The position numbers and the translations under genes are program-made. From assembly GCA_016840425.1 (NCBI GenBank), contig JAEOSI010000140.1, positions 1-6,144 of the forward strand: a DNA stretch of 6,144 nt. Direction: 5' to 3'. Of the stretch, positions 1 through 6,143 are shown in pieces (the first letter of the stretch is position 1; each line of letters opens with the position of its first letter). The notes under the pieces are model-generated. The model was given only the letters and a program-made list of their open reading frames with translations. It did no database searches and was not told the DNA's origin. The stretch is from Candidatus Wukongarchaeum yapensis. GTDB lineage: Archaea > Asgardarchaeota > Wukongarchaeia > Wukongarchaeales > Wukongarchaeaceae.

Positions 1-198
1 GTAGTAAGCCTCTTTTTGCTCAGGTGTTGGAGCCCATCTAATCATCTTGTTAAGAATTTCCACAGCCTTAATGTAATTGTCTAAAGCCGCTTTTTTCTGA
101 CCTTTCTTCTCATTTTCAATAGCTTTCTTAGCATAAGAAATGGCATACTGATAGAGTTCCTGCATTGCTGAAAGTTCTTTCTGACTGCTTTTAGACAT
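1..198 (-). CDS. MIT-domain protein, N-terminal 66 aa (partial, runs off window); probably Vps4/CdvC-type AAA+ ATPase
   Basis: Manual translation from ATG at 198: MSKSSQKELSAMQELYQYAISYAKKAIENEKKGQKKAALDNYIKAVEILNKMIRWAPTPEQKEAYY. It fits the MIT three-helix pattern (A..YA..A...E..G....A...Y..A.E.L) and has a GGTGG SD-like motif 6 nt upstream. The AAA domain is outside the window, so the Vps4 identity rests on context. Confidence 0.8.
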   Translation of the reverse strand, partial: MSKSSQKELSAMQELYQYAISYAKKAIENEKKGQKKAALDNYIKAVEILNKMIRWAPTPEQKEAYY

Positions 199-204
199 TA
201 CTAG

Positions 205-209
205 CCACC
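205..209 (-). promoter_or_regulatory. Shine-Dalgarno-like GGTGG for the MIT gene
   Basis: CCACC on + strand (GGTGG on -), 6 nt before the ATG at 198. Confidence 0.55.
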
Positions 210-667
210 ACATAAATTAATATGTAAAATAACATTAAAATTAGTTTCCCATCCCTAAAATAGGGAACAAAAAAGGAATTGATATAGAAAGATTTTCAGG
301 AGAAGGAAAAAAGGGAGAAGTTTAAGACGCTTAAGACAAAAATTTTAAAAGAAGAGTTTAATCGGGTGTTGCGAAAAGGGAGGCACATGGTTTTAGTAAA
401 CATGACTTACGGGAACCCTATTTTCAACGCTTTTTGATCACTTTTATACCGCTTTTTCTCTCACAAGATAAGCGGTTGTCGTTCAGTTCAAGCAAAACCC
501 TTTGTTGAATATGCTGGTTTCAAAGTTGTTAAATGTGAAAAGATTACGCAAAAAGGTTTTCCCTTAGAGATTATAAAGGCTTTAAAAATATGATGGATTA
601 AAGATATTTTTAGAAACGGTAATCCTTAATATATTTTAAACAATACTAATATTATAAACATGGGTTT

Positions 668-672
668 GGTGA
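668..672 (+). promoter_or_regulatory. Shine-Dalgarno GGTGA for ESCRT-III gene A
   Basis: GGTGA 6 nt upstream of the TTG start at 679, the typical archaeal SD core; supports the TTG start. Confidence 0.65.
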
Positions 673-678
673 TCTTCA

Positions 679-1287
679 TTGGTTTTCGGTAAGTTTGTTA
701 ATTGGTTGATGGGTGGTCGTAGTACTCGGGATTGGATTATTCGTCTTAGGTTGATAGAGCGTAGGATTGAGAGGCAACGCATGAAGTTGAAGAAGGATGA
801 GAATAAGATGATGAAAGAGGTTAGGAGGGCTGTAGAACAGGGGGACATGGAAGCTGCAAAAGTTTTTGCTCAGGATGTTGTAAGGAGTAGGCGTTTTGCT
901 TTGGGTTGTGCAAGGCTTAATTCTAGACTTAAGGGAATTATTGCTAAGATGGAGCACACGGATGCTGTTCAGAGTATAGTGAAGGATATGAAAGGTTTGG
1001 CTATATCTCTTAGGCAGCTTAACCGTTCGCTTAGAGTTCCTCAACTAGGTCGATATGTTGAACAGCTGGAAGAGGGTCTTACTGGTATTGAGGTTTCAAC
1101 GGAAACGATTGATGAAGAACTTGAAGGAGCTTTAAGTTCTGATATTGACGAAGAGGAAGTTACCAGGATTCTTGGGGAAGCAGGGGCGGTTGTAAGCGTG
1201 ACTACGGAGCATGGTCTTCCTACCCCATCAGCAAAGGAGAAAGAGATTAAGGAAGAATTAGAACGTTTACGCGAAGAGGAGAGTTAA
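679..1287 (+). CDS. ESCRT-III protein, Vps2/24/46 (CHMP1-3)-like class (Snf7 fold)
   Basis: 202 aa with a basic N-half and acidic C-half. N-terminal amphipathic segment MVFGKFVNWLMGG, long helical hairpin, motif GDMEAAKVFAQDVVRSRR resembling CHMP2/3 'AK..AK..VR.R', then LPTP and a terminal MIM1-like helix EKEIKEELERLR. Confidence 0.88.
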   Translation: MVFGKFVNWLMGGRSTRDWIIRLRLIERRIERQRMKLKKDENKMMKEVRRAVEQGDMEAAKVFAQDVVRSRRFALGCARLNSRLKGIIAKMEHTDAVQSIVKDMKGLAISLRQLNRSLRVPQLGRYVEQLEEGLTGIEVSTETIDEELEGALSSDIDEEEVTRILGEAGAVVSVTTEHGLPTPSAKEKEIKEELERLREEES

Positions 1288-1300
1288 AGCTTTAATAAGA

Positions 1301-1322
1301 TTCTTTTGTTAACCTCTTTTTT
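1301..1322 (+). terminator. Candidate archaeal oligo-T terminator
   Basis: Pyrimidine/T-rich tract TTCTTTTGTTAACCTCTTTTTT beginning 13 nt after the stop of gene A. Confidence 0.4.
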
Positions 1323-1401
1323 CCTTATACATTGTAGGGGATATTAGGCATAACTTAACACTTTTTAGGGTTTATTTGGGTTTTATAGGAGTTGTTAGGT
1401 T

Positions 1402-4125
1402 TTGGAGATAGGAAGGCCTTTATGCCAGATACTTCCACCACTCGTTGAGAGTTTAGATAGATTGGATCGAGTGGAAGAGCGTCTTCGTCCTTCTTTTGTT
1501 GAAGCGTTATTTCATGCCTACAAAGTTACCGGAGAGGAACGGGTTAAAGCAAGAATGCAAGATGTATTGTTTGGGCTTTTGACATTGCAGGAAGCGGATG
1601 GAAGCTTCTTTGTAGAAGAAGAGGATGATTTAGAGCTTTTTTCTGCTCTTTCCTTAAGGGCTTTATTTTATGTAAAGGAAGTTGTGGAGGTTCAAAAAGA
1701 AGTTTTTGAAAGCGTTTCAGAGTTTTTCCGTAAAGAAGGAAAGGATTGGCCGGCAGTTATGGGTTTATCTTTTTCTTATCTTTTAACAGAAAAAGAAGAG
1801 GATTTGGCTATAGCTCAGAAAATCACGGAAGGATTGGAGGGGGAGAGTAAGGTTAGGGGTCTATGCGCCCTCTATGTTGTAACTCAGGAGAAAGAACTTT
1901 TAGAAAAAGCTTATAGTTCGCTCGCTTCGCTTAATAAGAGAGATAATGAGGAGGCTTTTAAAGATTTAAACGTGGAGTTAGACATTATTTTGTGGGATAT
2001 TAGTGGTTTTGATCCGAAATTTTATCCTTCAGAGATTGTTTCAAGGAATGAGATAGCGAAAAGAATGGAAGTTAAGGAGGAGGTTGAGTGGTTAAGGTGG
2101 GGTTTTGGAGCGGTAGAGGGGGAACTTCTGGTTGGTGAAGGATCGGATAATTATTGGGCGAAACTGCTTGAGGAAAGGAGGTATCTTGTAAAAGCTCCTT
2201 TAAAGCCGAGGTATACGCCGTTAAAAGATGCTTTGCTTTTAGGTAAAAAGTTTAAAGCAAAGAAGGGTGTAGGGTGTAAAGGGGCCCTTTTCATAGGAAG
2301 GGTTGCGGAAAAGGGTTTGAAAACAAGCGATGTTGGAGAGATAGAGGAGATTTATGCAAAGTCTGTTGTTATTAACGCCTTGTTTCCGTTTGTTGTTTTT
2401 ATTTGCGGTCACAGAGGTTCTGGTAAGAGTTATACTATGGGGGTTTTGGCTGAAGAGTTGGCGCGGTCGAATTTGGGTATAGGTATCATAGTAATTGATC
2501 CTTTGGGCGTTTTTTATTCTATGAAACACCCTAATGTTGAATCAAAAGAAGTCGAAATTCTTAAAAAGTGGGGTATGAGACCTAAGGGTTATCCTAATAC
2601 TAGGGTGTATGTGCCGATAGAGCTTGCTTCTGATTTTCCTCCTGAAAGTTGGGATGTTAGATTTTCAATATCTGCTTCTGAGCTTTCAGTTGATGACTGG
2701 TGCCACGCTTTTGGAATTGATAGGTTTGCACCCCAAGGGCTGCTCATATCTCAAGCCATAGATAAGGTGAAGAAGGGTTATATTGCTGAAATTGAAGAAG
2801 GTGAACAAGTAGAGGTTGAAGGGAAGGAGAACTTCACTATTGATGACTTAACAAAGTGTATTGAAAGGGATATCGATATATCGTCAAAGTCTGTGGGATT
2901 TTCAAAGACTACGCAGAGAGCGGCGGTTGCAAGGCTTAATTCTGCGAAAAAGTGGGGTGTTTTAAGCGAAGTGGGGACGCCTTTAACAGAGTTGAGCGTT
3001 CCAAATCAAGTGACGGTTATTGATGTCAGTCATCCAAGGTTAGGGGAGGGATTGCGCGCACTTTTTGTGGGTATACTAGCGCGTAAAATCCTTAGAGAGA
3101 GGACAAAAGCTGCAAGGTATGAGGAAACAGAAGAAATGTTAATAGAGGTGGGGAAAGAAGCCCAAGAGATGAGAAAAGAGGAAATACCATTTACTTGGCT
3201 TGCGATAGATGAAGCACACCTTCTTGTACCTTCAAGAAAGGAAACAGCAGCAAGTATACCTATAGTTGAATATGCGAAACAGGGACGGAAACCGGGTTGC
3301 GCCTTACTAGTTTGCACCCAACAACCAAGTGCAACAGATCCGAGGGTTTTATCCCAAGCGGATTTAATGATTGTACACACTCTCACCTATGAAGATGATG
3401 TGAAAGCGTATATAAGACGTGCGCCTTCCCCTATACCTGATGAGTTAAAAAGCGCAGATTTTGTAAGAAGGCTTCCGGTAGGGGTTGCCATAGTTTCTGA
3501 TAAGGAGTCGGATAGGGGGATTGTTGTAGCGATAAGGGCTAGGTCTTCTATGCATGCTGGGAGAGAAGCCAGGCCGAAGATGGAGGAAAAACCTGAACCA
3601 TCACCCGTTGAAGAGGTCCTGGAACTTGTTTCCGAAGTTCTAGAGGAAGAGGGTGTGGGCGATGTTGGTGTCGAAGCTCCTACACCTCCTAGTGAAGTAA
3701 AGGTTACAGCGGAGGATGAAAAGGAGGGTTTGAGAGGGATTTCAACTATATCTCCGAGTGATGTGCCGAGAAGTCTTCTTAAAGATTTTTTGAAACGTAA
3801 ACTTTTGTATCCTCATTTTACCGACGCCTTGGCGAAAAGTAAGGATGGTCGGGTTCTGCCTTATGAAGTTTCCTCGATAAAATTAGGTTTAACAGGGGCA
3901 AATAGTGCGTCTATCGTTATTTCACGCATTAGGGATGTTGGGTGGAAAATAGTTAAGATCCAGGAAAGTGATAAGTTTCCTGCGGTTATTTTTGACAGAG
4001 GAGGGATGAAGCTTGGGTTGGTAATGGCCCTTGTAGAGGATGGCCTTGAAATCGTATTTACGATAAGCCCTCCGAATCTTTCTGTCCTTTCTGAATTAAA
4101 AAGGGCGATTGAAGGACGAACATGA
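1402..4125 (+). CDS. HerA/FtsK-superfamily (DUF87-type) P-loop ATPase with N-terminal helical-repeat region and extra C-terminal domain
   Basis: Walker A GHRGSGKS (nt 2407-2430), IVIDPLG motif, Walker B WLAIDEAH (3196-3219), arginine-finger QGRK (3280-3291), TQQP (3316-3327) and terminal RSSMHAG, all diagnostic of HerA-like ATPases. TTG start with AGGAG ~10 nt upstream and an in-frame TAG just before it. Confidence 0.9.
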   Translation: MEIGRPLCQILPPLVESLDRLDRVEERLRPSFVEALFHAYKVTGEERVKARMQDVLFGLLTLQEADGSFFVEEEDDLELFSALSLRALFYVKEVVEVQKEVFESVSEFFRKEGKDWPAVMGLSFSYLLTEKEEDLAIAQKITEGLEGESKVRGLCALYVVTQEKELLEKAYSSLASLNKRDNEEAFKDLNVELDIILWDISGFDPKFYPSEIVSRNEIAKRMEVKEEVEWLRWGFGAVEGELLVGEGSDNYWAKLLEERRYLVKAPLKPRYTPLKDALLLGKKFKAKKGVGCKGALFIGRVAEKGLKTSDVGEIEEIYAKSVVINALFPFVVFICGHRGSGKSYTMGVLAEELARSNLGIGIIVIDPLGVFYSMKHPNVESKEVEILKKWGMRPKGYPNTRVYVPIELASDFPPESWDVRFSISASELSVDDWCHAFGIDRFAPQGLLISQAIDKVKKGYIAEIEEGEQVEVEGKENFTIDDLTKCIERDIDISSKSVGFSKTTQRAAVARLNSAKKWGVLSEVGTPLTELSVPNQVTVIDVSHPRLGEGLRALFVGILARKILRERTKAARYEETEEMLIEVGKEAQEMRKEEIPFTWLAIDEAHLLVPSRKETAASIPIVEYAKQGRKPGCALLVCTQQPSATDPRVLSQADLMIVHTLTYEDDVKAYIRRAPSPIPDELKSADFVRRLPVGVAIVSDKESDRGIVVAIRARSSMHAGREARPKMEEKPEPSPVEEVLELVSEVLEEEGVGDVGVEAPTPPSEVKVTAEDEKEGLRGISTISPSDVPRSLLKDFLKRKLLYPHFTDALAKSKDGRVLPYEVSSIKLGLTGANSASIVISRIRDVGWKIVKIQESDKFPAVIFDRGGMKLGLVMALVEDGLEIVFTISPPNLSVLSELKRAIEGRT

Positions 4126-4256
4126 AAAAATAGAAACCCTTTTTAGTTACAGCTATCTTTAATACATAAAAGAAAAATAATCCTTAAGACTAATAAAAAA
4201 AATAGTTTAAGTGATTGTTGTTTATCTTCAATATTTTTTAGATGGAGATTTTAATA

Positions 4257-4934
4257 ATGGGCATTAGGAATTTTCTCTTTGGGGATAAACGAAGAAAACC
4301 ATCAGAAACCATAGCTAAGCTTAGGGCAGTGATCAATCGCTATGAACTGAAATCAAGGGCCATAAGGCGTAAAGCAGATGAGCAACGTTCGTTAGCTATA
4401 GAAATGGTTCGTGATGGCAATAAGATGGGAGCAAAAAAATCTTTATTGAGGAGACAACTTTACCTTAAGAAGCTTGAAAGTACAGAGAATAAAATCCTTA
4501 ACATTAATCGTGTTATAGAGACCATTGAAACTGTGAAAGATAATATTGAGCTTAGTGGCGCTCTTAGAGAGGCAGACGTCGTTATAAATGAGGGTTTGAG
4601 GGAAGTGGGACCGGAAGTAACAGAGGAACTTATGGTACGTCTTGAAGAGGGGATGGAAAGGGCTGCTATGGCTGATGAAGCCCTTTCTGATGTTACTTCT
4701 GCCGAAGCAGAACTTGATCTAGAAATAGAAGAATCTATTGATGCAGAAATCGCCGCTATGGAACGCCAACTCTTGGGAGCAGAAGGAGTAACTACTGAAC
4801 CCGCATCCAGAACCTCTGCAGAAAAACCAAAAGAAACCCGTGTAGCAGACAAAGAAAAACTGGAAGCAGAAGAATCAGAAATAGAAAAGGAGATAAAACT
4901 TCTGAAAAAGCAATTAGAAACATCCTCCCAATAA
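4257..4934 (+). CDS. ESCRT-III protein, Snf7/Vps20/32/60 (CHMP4-7)-like class
   Basis: MGIRNFLFGDKRRK...IAKLR...GNKMGAKKSLLRRQLYLKKLE matches the Snf7 pattern (G.LFG.K, I.KLR, NK..A...L.R...Y...L). Acidic C-half and terminal amphipathic helix. Start placed at the second ATG (4257) because GGAG at 4244-4247 precedes it by 9 nt; ATG 4242 is the alternative. Confidence 0.88.
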   Translation: MGIRNFLFGDKRRKPSETIAKLRAVINRYELKSRAIRRKADEQRSLAIEMVRDGNKMGAKKSLLRRQLYLKKLESTENKILNINRVIETIETVKDNIELSGALREADVVINEGLREVGPEVTEELMVRLEEGMERAAMADEALSDVTSAEAELDLEIEESIDAEIAAMERQLLGAEGVTTEPASRTSAEKPKETRVADKEKLEAEESEIEKEIKLLKKQLETSSQ

Positions 4935-4989
4935 AAACTTAAACAAAAAACTGTAAACTTCAAAAACGCTAAATAAAAGTCGAAAACAC

Positions 4990-5001
4990 TTTTTTATTTT
5001 T
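4990..5001 (+). terminator. Candidate oligo-T terminator for ESCRT-III gene B
   Basis: TTTTTTATTTTT 55 nt after the stop codon. Confidence 0.45.
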
Positions 5002-5141
5002 ATACTGTAAGAAGATCCCTTTACGCAAGAGAGGGAATGAATTGCTATAGATGTCTATTAGCAGAGTTTTTATATGAACCCAGAAGCGATCAGTGCGATA
5101 AACATTTTGTTTGCTACTTTTCTTTTAACTTATTCAGCGAG

Positions 5142-5162
5142 AAGTCCCCTTGTGCAAGGGAG
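5142..5162 (+). repeat. IS200/IS605 left-end hairpin with guide tetranucleotide
   Basis: AAGT followed by CCCCTTG-TG-CAAGGG(A)G, containing a perfect 6-bp stem at 5147-5160. The GAAG(T/C)..CCC...GGGAG layout is similar to the right end. Confidence 0.6.
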
Positions 5163-5365
5163 GGGGGTGAATCGCGGTGTTTATAAAAGTTTTCAAGAAA
5201 AGAAGAGTAAGATGCAGCAGCTAAACCAGAAGATAAGATCAAGCTCAGGATACTCCTTTCAAAGGGGAAGAAGAAATCCTTTAGAGTTCAAAAAATCGAA
5301 AAACAGGGGACAAAAAGCAAATCTTCCCCTGTTTAGAAACCTGTAAAGCCAGGGTAGGTAAAAAA

Positions 5366-5985
5366 ATAATAGCTTATAAATTTAGGCTGTATCCTAGCCC
5401 AGAGCAAGAAAAAAGACTGTTATGGACCTTGGAAAGATGCAGGTTTTTATACAACCAGATGTTAAAAGGCTTAAACCAGCAGGAAGATAAGCCTAACAGG
5501 TTAGAGCTGCAAAACTCCCTCCCAGAGTTAAAAGAAAACCATCCAGAGCTCAAAAAAGTTTACTCTAAAGTTTTACAATACGAATCATACCTGTTGAGAA
5601 ATTAGACGTAAACGGTTTGATAAGGATTAGTTATAATGCTCGGAACATAATGGATTCCTCTTGGAACAAATTCACGCAATTTCTGTCTTACAAGGCTGAA
5701 AGAGCTGGTAAGACGGTTGTAGAAGTGAGCCCGAGAGGAACTACCCAAGAATGTTATAAATGCGGCAAAGAAGTGGAGAAAAGTTTGGCTGTAAGAACCC
5801 ATAAATGCCCCCATTGCGGGTTAGATATAGGCAGAAACTACAACTCCTCATTCGTAGTCTTGAAAAGAGGTTTAGAAGAACTGTTAGGGCAGGGACTGCC
5901 CGAATTTACGCCTGCGGAGACAGAGCCTCTACCGAGAAAGATCTCGGCAAGTTCAGTCGTTGAAACAGGAAGCTCCCTGCGATAG
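5366..5985 (+). pseudogene. tnpB: Internally deleted and frameshifted TnpB (RNA-guided endonuclease) remnant
   Basis: Frame 1, 5366-5605: IIAYKFRLYPSPEQEKRLLWTLERCRFLYNQML...ELKKVYSKVLQYESY (TnpB N-terminal HTH/REC start), stop at 5603-5605, no ATG seen. Frame 2 from ~5593: VEKLDVNGL (RuvC-II Glu)...YKAERAGK..VEVSPRGTTQECYKCG...HKCPHCG (Zn finger 5752-5817)..GRNYNS. RuvC-I and the middle of the protein are absent. Confidence 0.92.
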
Positions 5986-6020
5986 CTGGGAGTAGTTCAC
6001 ATGATTGGACTCCCAAAGCG
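5887..6020 (+). ncRNA. Putative TnpB reRNA/omegaRNA scaffold plus flanking guide
   Basis: Hairpins GGGCAG-GGA-CTGCCC (5887-5901), CCGAGA-AAGA-TCTCGG (5932-5947) and the right-end hairpin overlap the tnpB 3' end, as is established for reRNAs. The guide would be the flank from 6001 (ATGATTGGACTCCCAAAGCG). Boundaries and expression are not demonstrated. Confidence 0.55.
5969..6000 (+). repeat. IS200/IS605 right-end hairpin and TCAC cleavage site
   Basis: GAAG-CTCCC-T-GC-GATA-GC-T-GGGAG-TAGTTCAC: stem 5973-5992 with one T/T mismatch, ending in TCAC. Confidence 0.8.
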
Positions 6021-6143
6021 GTTTTTTCTACGGTCTAATTCTTTTCTAATCATAAACTTTTGCTGGTTATAATGTTTTATCTGGCGTATATAGTCCGGTC
6101 CGTTTATTTCGCCCCTTTCAAATCTTTCATGGAGGGTGTTTAA
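5997..6143 (-). CDS. C-terminal 48 aa of a convergent gene (partial); steadiness-box (Vps23/Vps37 core)-like
   Basis: Manual translation: LNTLHERFERGEINGPDYIRQIKHYNQQKFMIRKELDRRKNRFGSPIM*. Aligns without gaps to the TSG101 steadiness box as I recall it (LGEALRRGVIDLDVFLKHVRLLSRKQFQLR). A generic SHOCT-like motif is an alternative. The stop codon lies inside the IS right end. Confidence 0.55.
   Translation of the reverse strand, partial: LNTLHERFERGEINGPDYIRQIKHYNQQKFMIRKELDRRKNRFGSPIM

Follow-up and report, generated by a model that had tools for sequence, protein, structure and literature searches.

In archaea and in models of eukaryogenesis, ESCRT-III and Vps4 are treated as a complete two-part scission engine. 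Described components of the ubiquitin-ESCRT gene clusters of Asgard archaea include Vps4, Vps25, ESCRT-IIIA, ESCRT-IIIB, and a Znr_CC_PH_SB protein (Hatano 2022, PMC9192718; Makarova 2024, PMC10936438). The locus analyzed here, a 6,144-bp stretch of Candidatus Wukongarchaeum yapensis DNA (GCA_016840425.1, contig JAEOSI010000140.1; hereafter, the window), resembles these clusters in components and usual arrangement but carries an extra gene, encoding a 907-amino-acid (aa) ATPase, between its two ESCRT-III genes. Six-frame open reading frames (ORFs) and family scans gave the order Vps4 with its MIT domain (minus strand), ESCRT-IIIA, ATPase, and ESCRT-IIIB (plus strand), and the tail of a steadiness box (SB) protein gene (minus strand). 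A preliminary description, made from the letters of the window, had proposed the same order, and all five genes were found where it placed them; its labels for the A- and B-type ESCRT-III and MIT proteins were likewise correct, as judged from Snf7 and MIT matches and from solved relatives. Genomic coupling of this ATPase, a HerA-clade protein with an N-terminal toroid domain, to ESCRT-III is strongly supported across Asgard families, and the ATPase is probably an undescribed partner of the ESCRT machinery that eukaryotes inherited.

The ATPase matched DUF87 (PF01935) over residues 334 to 560 with 52.7 bits, compared to a cutoff of 23.2. The Walker A (GHRGSGKS; residues 336 to 343), Walker B (WLAIDEAH; 599 to 606), GRKPG (628 to 632), TQQPS (639 to 643), and HAGRE motifs were invariant across 13 divergent orthologs. 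Judged by sequence, the protein is a ring-type P-loop motor with its catalytic motifs intact and belongs to the HerA clade within the FtsK-HerA superfamily, and its closest solved relative was S. solfataricus HerA (PDB 4d2i; E = 1.8e-8). With HerA of the HerA-NurA(-Mre11-Rad50) repair systems it shares the P-loop clade (DUF87/HerA central domain and HerA_C) and the conserved Walker A and B, arginine, and sensor motifs, but identity is ~20% or less and covers the core only; the ATPase has a modeled helical toroid where repair HerA has a HAS barrel, carries in addition an acidic linker and a further domain at its C terminus, and has no adjacent NurA. NCBIfam HerA models scored 39.9 bits against cutoffs of 800 and 970, and no nurA, mre11, or rad50 neighbors were found in the window or in 30 orthologous loci. 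The preliminary description had argued that this was not a repair HerA, a view upheld by the rest of the assembly: since a canonical NurA-HerA-Mre11-Rad50 operon lies on a separate contig (C191) of this genome, the ATPase is an extra HerA-clade paralog and not the repair enzyme and is therefore free for another role.

Comparison to other described ring motors also set the protein apart. Anti-phage HerA systems (Sir2-HerA and DUF4297-HerA) have an adjacent effector, whereas the neighbors of this ATPase are ESCRT genes; anti-phage HerA equivalogs scored 33 and 32 bits versus cutoffs of 800 and 850, and PADLOC HerA models matched only the C-terminal half of the core (E = 2.7e-16). The score was far below the NCBIfam CedD cutoff, and an NCBIfam VirB4-like match was weak (2.8e-7). 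Vps4/CdvC is a hexameric ATPase likewise encoded in the ESCRT-III cluster, divergently upstream here, but it is an AAA+ protein with an MIT domain, whereas the 907-aa ATPase is of the FtsK-HerA (RecA-like) class; a hidden Markov model (HMM) made from neighboring Vps4 proteins found no MIT domain in the members of the ATPase family searched. Bacterial FtsK shares the superfamily and a similar logic, in which a ring motor, joined through a long linker to a targeting domain, is encoded or placed with the division or scission machinery. Unlike FtsK, the ATPase had no PF01580 (FtsK_SpoIIIE) match at E ≤ 1, no membrane-helix-type hydrophobic segment outside the P-loop strand, and no match to a winged helix, such as that of the FtsK gamma domain, and its partner would be ESCRT-III instead of FtsZ. 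By this analogy, the likeness to FtsK would be one of working manner, not of membership. HerA as an archaeal stand-in for FtsK was reportedly proposed from comparative genomics two decades ago, by Iyer and coworkers in 2004. No true FtsK was found in this genome, in which an FtsZ gene is present. A separate 573-aa ORF (C101:4912-5076) with a marginal FtsK_SpoIIIE P-loop match (24.6 bits) represents another HerA/FtsK-superfamily ATPase of this genome.

To place the locus among its relatives, 400 Asgard genomes were scanned. Full-length orthologs (E < 1e-100) were present in families f1, f2, f5, f7, f18, f23, f24, f25, and f32, and a second class of ~750 aa, matching the core only, was found mainly in family f6. 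ESCRT-III, Vps4, and SB genes were then mapped in 49 loci, up to ~8 kb per side, with HMMs grown from the window proteins. An ESCRT-III gene adjoined the toroid-bearing ATPase in 26 of the 31 assessable genomes across the nine families assessed (f1, 2/2; f2, 1/1; f7, 4/4; f18, 6/6; f24, 3/3; f25, 2/2; f32, 3/3; f23, 5/9; f5, 0/1), and the wider flanks differed among the eight families with adjacency (f1, f2, f7, f18, f23, f24, f25, and f32). By comparison, ESCRT-III was near toroid-less Asgard paralogs in 0 of 17 loci. Neither ESCRT-III nor Vps4 was found within ~6 kb of 65 non-Asgard relatives (one genome per species) from Thermoplasmatota, Hadarchaeota, Methanofastidiosia, Thermococci, Iainarchaeia, and other DPANN, and no ESCRT-III was present on the contigs of two further relatives with precomputed Pfam annotation. 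Matches to an HMM of the toroid were confined to ESCRT-linked proteins. ESCRT linkage thus tracks with the toroid (26/31 with it versus 0/82 without it), and the association that the preliminary description had drawn from a single contig holds among homologs: proteins of this architecture are not mostly found away from ESCRT genes, and relatives lacking the N-domain were never beside them.

The usual gene order was ESCRT-IIIA, ATPase, and ESCRT-IIIB on one strand, with the SB protein gene facing ESCRT-IIIB, and Vps4 and Vps25 were encoded divergently upstream in five families. By longest-ORF calls, the spacer between ESCRT-IIIA and the ATPase was 5 to 6 nt in f7 and f32, 24 nt in f2, and 49 nt in f18, a short spacing that argues for an operon in those families. 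In f18, f23, and f32, a ~345-aa gene (e.g., L023:7182-8249, minus strand) directly follows the ATPase and precedes ESCRT-IIIB. Its product is predicted to be helical and had no Pfam or PADLOC match. In f18, this gene and the ATPase gene share 8 nt at the stop codon of the latter. The ~345-aa gene is absent from the family of the window and may encode a further partner of the ATPase.

Some flanks had contents of their own. In f23 MAGs labeled “Heimdallarchaeota” (metagenome-assembled genomes; loci L045 to L057), an unannotated 1,038-aa gene, a LarC-like nickel-insertion gene, and a 347-aa gene lie upstream of the ATPase, and one f23 contig filed in GenBank under Bathyarchaeia looks mislabeled. 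Jordarchaeia-type genomes (L023, L025, and L035 to L038; f18 and f7) have a TauE/SafE exporter gene and a SPOUT-type RNA methyltransferase gene upstream of ESCRT-IIIA instead of Vps4 and Vps25, and in these same families a proteasome alpha subunit gene follows the SB gene and the Vps4-like gene encodes 723 aa, twice the usual length. In one relative (L032), a methyltransferase gene occupies the intergenic position between vps4 and ESCRT-IIIA. Genomes of the relatives are labeled Jord-, Hel-, Heimdall-, and Promethearchaeota.

The ESCRT-III/Vps4 module next to the ATPase is complete, with one A-type and one B-type ESCRT-III and an MIT-bearing Vps4. The product of the upstream ESCRT-III gene is A-type because its closest solved relatives are CHMP2A (1.3e-13), CHMP1B (1.5e-11), and CHMP3, whereas the best solved relative of the downstream product was a Heimdallarchaeota ESCRT-IIIB (9ftl; E = 5e-29). 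Translation of ESCRT-IIIB probably starts at the ATG at position 4257, since its orthologs begin with MGIK or MSIK. Vps4 runs off the window, but it is full length (386 aa; MIT-AAA-Vps4_C) on JGI contig L031, which carries an ATPase gene with the same translation as that of the window. Only two Snf7 genes were found in the whole assembly, both flanking the ATPase, which therefore lies inside the sole ESCRT-III set of the organism and not beside a spare copy. The C termini of both ESCRT-III proteins carry a proline motif (LPxxP in one and PxVP in the other) followed by a short amphipathic helix (ELEKEIKKLKEE and EIExLRKxLE, respectively), kept across families; these features are typical of Vps4-binding elements, namely, an MIT-interacting motif 2 (MIM2) plus a MIM1-like element. 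A complex prediction for ESCRT-IIIA and the toroid domain returned a score of 0.00, which is no answer and weighs neither for nor against binding.

The N-terminal domain is the feature that distinguishes the ESCRT-linked proteins. An AlphaFold 2 (AF2) model of residues 1 to 258 (predicted local distance difference test [pLDDT], 86.5) had 13 helices. The preliminary description had noted no obvious beta-rich HAS barrel, and the modeled N terminus is all-helical; the model ends at residue 258, and ~75 residues remain before the P-loop. All of the 50 best VIA structural matches were (alpha/alpha)6 toroids (Z, 14.1 to 10.7; 196 to 254 aligned residues), including GH76, complement and A2M thioester domains (TEDs), terpenoid cyclases, and LanC-type proteins. 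Complement TED and GH76 also made up the top Foldseek rows, and searches of PDB and AlphaFold clusters agreed on toroids, while Foldseek against PDB gave no match at E ≤ 0.001 for either the N- or the C-domain. Pfam matches in the N-domains of orthologs were weak and to toroid families (C5-epimerase_C, GH88, GH47, and pectate lyase 2), and the nearest protein-language-feature neighbors were squalene-cyclase, prenyltransferase, and TED clusters (0.77 to 0.79), which we take as a lead only. As modeled, the N-domain is a compact alpha/alpha toroid by fold, with Z values that can be reached by helical arrangement alone and do not imply kinship to any toroid family. None of the catalytic or ligand signatures sought in the toroid (DxDD, zinc ligands, thioester CGEQ, and an acid pair) was conserved; only W198 and P209 were invariant, and L122, R215, and E241 were nearly so. 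The toroid was acidic in 28 of 28 sequences compared (median isoelectric point [pI], 4.9), and it is more likely to be a protein-docking module than a surface for DNA or lipid.

The linker after the core (residues 726 to 782) was poorly conserved, with a pI of 4.1 and a net charge of −12. An AF2 model of the C-domain (pLDDT, 87.4) had the order alpha-beta-alpha-beta4-alpha, and its fold matches were middling: the AP-2 beta2 appendage platform (Z, 7.9), KA1 domains (Z, 6 to 7.4), and the gamma-COP appendage (Z, 6.1). An entry in the AlphaFold database (AFDB) named after the TrmB C-terminal domain matched with an E value of 1.1e-5, and a protein-language-feature search with the C-domain gave no usable match. 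An HMM of the C-domain also matched, more weakly, toroid-less Asgard paralogs from f6 and f33.

The closest relatives of the core were archaea-wide DUF87 proteins with 40 to 46% identity in the best tblastn segment (query residues ~216 to 786) and 45 to 51% for some in other comparisons. These giants, which combine DUF87 with DUF835 and/or a TrmB-type winged helix-turn-helix and occur in Thermoplasmatota, Hadarchaeota, Methanofastidiosia, Iainarchaeia, and other DPANN, fell in the same FastTree clade as the toroid-bearing proteins (104 rows; support 95*) but lack the toroid, the Asgard C-domain, and conserved neighbors (65 loci). A TrmB-type winged helix was detected near the C terminus in three of seven non-Asgard relatives scanned, at 17 to 21 bits and below threshold, and stored Pfam annotation lists PF01978, position not given, on two relatives (P0178 and P0179). 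The putative winged helices of these relatives recall the FtsK gamma domain and would give a layout of motor plus winged helix, as in FtsK. The Asgard C-domain as kin of the C termini of 46 non-Asgard relatives was considered and rejected (profile-profile probability, 0.1; E = 0.43).

Core trees left the backbone unresolved. When the toroid-bearing rows were held as one clade, the approximately unbiased test gave a p-AU of 0.535, with a log likelihood 2.3 above that of the free tree; the constrained group took in four nested short rows that were added after the tree was inspected. Monophyly of the ESCRT-linked clade, for which the preliminary description had proposed a tree, was thus not rejected but, with this backbone, was not demonstrated either; the sequences are compatible with a single origin.

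How the ATPase might act with ESCRT-III can be outlined as follows. It would be made together with ESCRT-IIIA and ESCRT-IIIB, as the conserved, often tight, codirectional gene order suggests, and would assemble, like its family, as a hexamer. The acidic toroid, in place of the HAS barrel of repair HerA, may dock this ring on the ESCRT-III polymer or on an ESCRT adaptor at the membrane neck; docking is assigned to the toroid because no other feature tracks with ESCRT linkage. By analogy with HerA and FtsK, the motor would thread a polymer, most probably double-stranded DNA, through its pore, and DNA would either be cleared from the neck before scission or be loaded into a bud, vesicle, or protrusion. 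A functional tie between the ATPase and ESCRT-III is, in our judgment, quite probable. DNA translocation is the most likely reading of the mechanism by analogy, and the pump step itself is doubtful. The reading as a whole, an Asgard-specific HerA-clade motor built into the ESCRT-III module and threading DNA, is tentative, with the balance slightly against it. A two-motor ESCRT-III, in which Vps4 would recycle the polymer and the toroid-tagged HerA-type ring would pump DNA through or out of the neck or load vesicles or protrusions, is rather unlikely when specified to this extent.

Several observations weigh against DNA threading by an ESCRT-bound ring. HerA-type rings also serve as scaffolds and activators in defense systems, and the fold is no proof of a DNA pump; the grounds for putative DNA binding, hexamer formation, and ESCRT contact are family analogy and gene order. 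The N-domain is strongly acidic and therefore not itself a DNA-binding or a membrane- or lipid-headgroup-binding surface, the pI of the C-domain ranged from 4.9 to 9.6 among orthologs with no consistent positive charge, and the Asgard toroid clade has no detectable counterpart of the winged helix seen in relatives. Most of the Asgard genomes sampled had no ortholog (134 of 135 in f9 and all 31 in f4), and we know of no indication that Asgard ESCRT needs the ATPase. In f23, ESCRT-IIIA was not adjacent, and four of nine assessable loci had no ESCRT-III nearby. Finally, spacers of 114 and 116 nt in the window make separate transcripts possible in this genome.

The alternative that survives best, although it is unlikely, is that the ring acts on protein, either as a second motor that remodels or takes apart ESCRT-III filaments or their cargo or as a chaperone for their assembly, with the toroid gripping the basic ESCRT-III core or a tail peptide. 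Gene linkage would be the same as for a DNA pump. The acidity of the toroid in every sequence compared, the common holding of peptides and proteins by toroids of that superfamily, the lack in this clade of the winged helix of its relatives, and the inclusion of VirB4-type secretion ATPases in the FtsK-HerA superfamily (with the weak VirB4-like match above) all fit a protein substrate. However, Vps4, which does that job in every known ESCRT system, is encoded next door, the nearest characterized relatives by sequence are DNA motors, and contact with ESCRT-III is hypothetical for this alternative as well.

A smaller probability falls to the ATPase being a bystander with an unrelated role, e.g., in genome maintenance, whose place in the gene order was inherited without functional coupling. 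The spacers in the window were as described in the preliminary description, T-rich with T-tracts, and also contain TATA-like runs, which would suit independent genes, as would the absence of the gene from most Asgard ESCRT systems and of ESCRT-III from the vicinity of some f23 loci. Against this, the order was kept in the families assessed while the outer flanks differed, spacers shrink to 5 to 6 nt, in f18 the 345-aa gene (F2_345) overlaps the ATPase stop codon and has ESCRT-IIIB as the next gene, and adjacency follows exactly the gain of a specific domain. As a weak hint of expression, contigs of one metatranscriptome covered parts of ESCRT-IIIA (757-1095) and the ATPase (1938-2143 and 3102-3289), possibly through DNA carry-over, and no contigs in that data set (run X20) bridged gene junctions. 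A scan for sigma-70 promoters and intrinsic terminators gave counts at shuffle level, with models that do not apply to archaea.

Least probable is a regulated scaffold or sensor ring, as HerA is in Sir2-HerA-type systems, with a toroid ligand (isoprenoid or glycan) or nucleotide state as the signal: the toroid does resemble the folds with which terpenoid cyclases, prenyltransferases, and TEDs bind lipids, glycans, or targets, and PADLOC HerA models do match half of the core, but the toroid has no conserved catalytic or ligand signature, no effector gene (Sir2 or nuclease) is adjacent, and the anti-phage equivalogs fall far short of their cutoffs.

If DNA threading by the toroid-tagged ring is true, the ATPase would play, with ESCRT, the part that FtsK plays in bacteria, and would do so in the archaeal lineage that gave eukaryotes their ESCRT machinery. 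The presence of a second conserved motor of the DNA-pump class between ESCRT-III genes of several Asgard classes suggests a link of membrane scission to the handling of DNA or another polymer, which to our knowledge has not been studied so far. The motor is a candidate for the means by which FtsK-less archaea clear a closing neck of DNA or by which DNA enters ESCRT-dependent vesicles. Being soluble and of modest size, the proteins are directly testable in recombinant form, with the toroid as a handle for interaction studies.

The preliminary description knew of no characterized ESCRT system with such a component, in agreement with our literature search, in which no description of a HerA/FtsK/DUF87 ATPase linked to ESCRT in Asgard archaea was found in the searchable literature. 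An Asgard/ESCRT-III cell cycle review mentions FtsK for bacteria only. Makarova 2024 (PMC10936438), Hatano 2022 (PMC9192718), and Souza 2025 are silent on the ATPase in their main texts, as is part of the supplements of Makarova 2024, which could list it for Helarchaeota under some asCOG name. Hel_GB_B, drawn in the synteny figure of Hatano 2022 (PMC9192718), carries the ATPase gene, which is probably in plain sight there as an uncolored arrow. As far as can be told, no publication describes the genomic coupling of such a toroid-tagged HerA-clade motor and ESCRT-III.

The window is the whole of contig C143 of a 2.16-Mb Asgard MAG (277 contigs; 92% complete; 38% G+C), so that the assembly offers no flanking sequence beyond it, and the population is present in marine sediment, marsh, and mangrove metagenomes. 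Features of the window are collected in Table 1.

TABLE 1 Features of the 6,144-bp window and the matches or models that define them
Feature	Position (nt)	Strand	Match or model
Vps4 N terminus, 71 codons, MIT domain; runs off contig end	1-213	−	Pfam MIT, E = 6.5e-9; NCBIfam CdvC N terminus, E = 7.7e-8
Intergenic region, AT-rich, divergent (vps4 to ESCRT-IIIA); presumed promoters	214-678		No ORF with family match
ESCRT-IIIA (Vps2/24/46, CHMP1-3-like), 202 aa	679-1287	+	Snf7, E = 1.2e-13
T-rich spacer (ESCRT-IIIA to ATPase), 114 nt	1288-1401		
ATPase N-domain, residues 1-268, acidic alpha/alpha toroid (modeled)	1402-2205	+	AF2 model
ATPase core, residues 270-725, HerA/DUF87-type P-loop	2209-3576	+	PF01935, 52.7 bits
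ATPase Walker A	2407-2430	+	
ATPase Walker B	3196-3219	+	
ATPase GRKPG	3283-3297	+	
ATPase TQQPS	3316-3330	+	
ATPase HAGRE	3553-3567	+	
ATPase acidic low-complexity linker, residues 726-782	3577-3747	+	
ATPase C-terminal alpha/beta domain, residues 783-907, and stop codon	3748-4125	+	AF2 model
ESCRT-IIIB (Vps20/32/60-like), 230 aa as longest ORF	4242-4934	+	Snf7, E = 1e-12
Degraded IS200/IS605-type TnpB remnant, 872 bp	5129-6000	+	Cas12f1-like_TNB, E = 3e-20; NCBIfam guided_TnpB, E = 1.4e-23
SB protein tail, last 48 codons of ~531-aa gene, Znr_CC_PH_SB type	5997-6143	−	Same-genus ortholog

At the right-hand end, the SB gene is convergent on ESCRT-IIIB, and the SB protein was a conserved neighbor in families f1, f2, f7, and f18. 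Its ortholog in a genome of the same genus (G001; L022:6010-7611) has 533 aa, with six CxxC motifs that make up three zinc ribbons, a region resembling a PH domain, and a match to Vps23_core (PF09454, the steadiness box) at residues 482 to 518 that is below threshold (23.5 bits versus a cutoff of 26.8; E = 5.6e-5). The same architecture goes by the name Znr_PH_CC_SB in the main text of Makarova 2024 (PMC10936438) and by Znr_CC_PH_SB in its supplement, and is viewed there as an ancestral Asgard ESCRT-I-like protein, and these features make the label “SB-like” in the preliminary description a reasonable one. In the C-terminal region of the ortholog, a motif of ~27 residues (KVLN.L...F.RGEI..PEYMR....Y) also occurs twice in tandem; on visual inspection it resembles a SHOCT-type repeat as well, and Pfam gave Vps23_core only.

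Between ESCRT-IIIB and the SB gene, the gene labels of the preliminary description stood, but the 872-bp TnpB remnant had been overlooked. TnpB fragments lie at 5429-5605 and 5617-5985. In contigs from two other metagenomes, position 5128 is joined directly to position 6001, and copies of the element occur on further contigs of this genome, so the segment is an insertion polymorphism, a decayed IS200/IS605-type element. Its 3′ ~414 nt are present as a near-full copy on nine other contigs of the same genome (82 to 90% identity), its last ~116 nt are on many more, and its read depth is 5 to 10 times that of its flanks. The insertion point coincides with the SB stop codon, and the element alters only the last residue of the SB protein. 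Judging from relatives, ESCRT-IIIB and the SB gene were already convergent in the ancestral locus.

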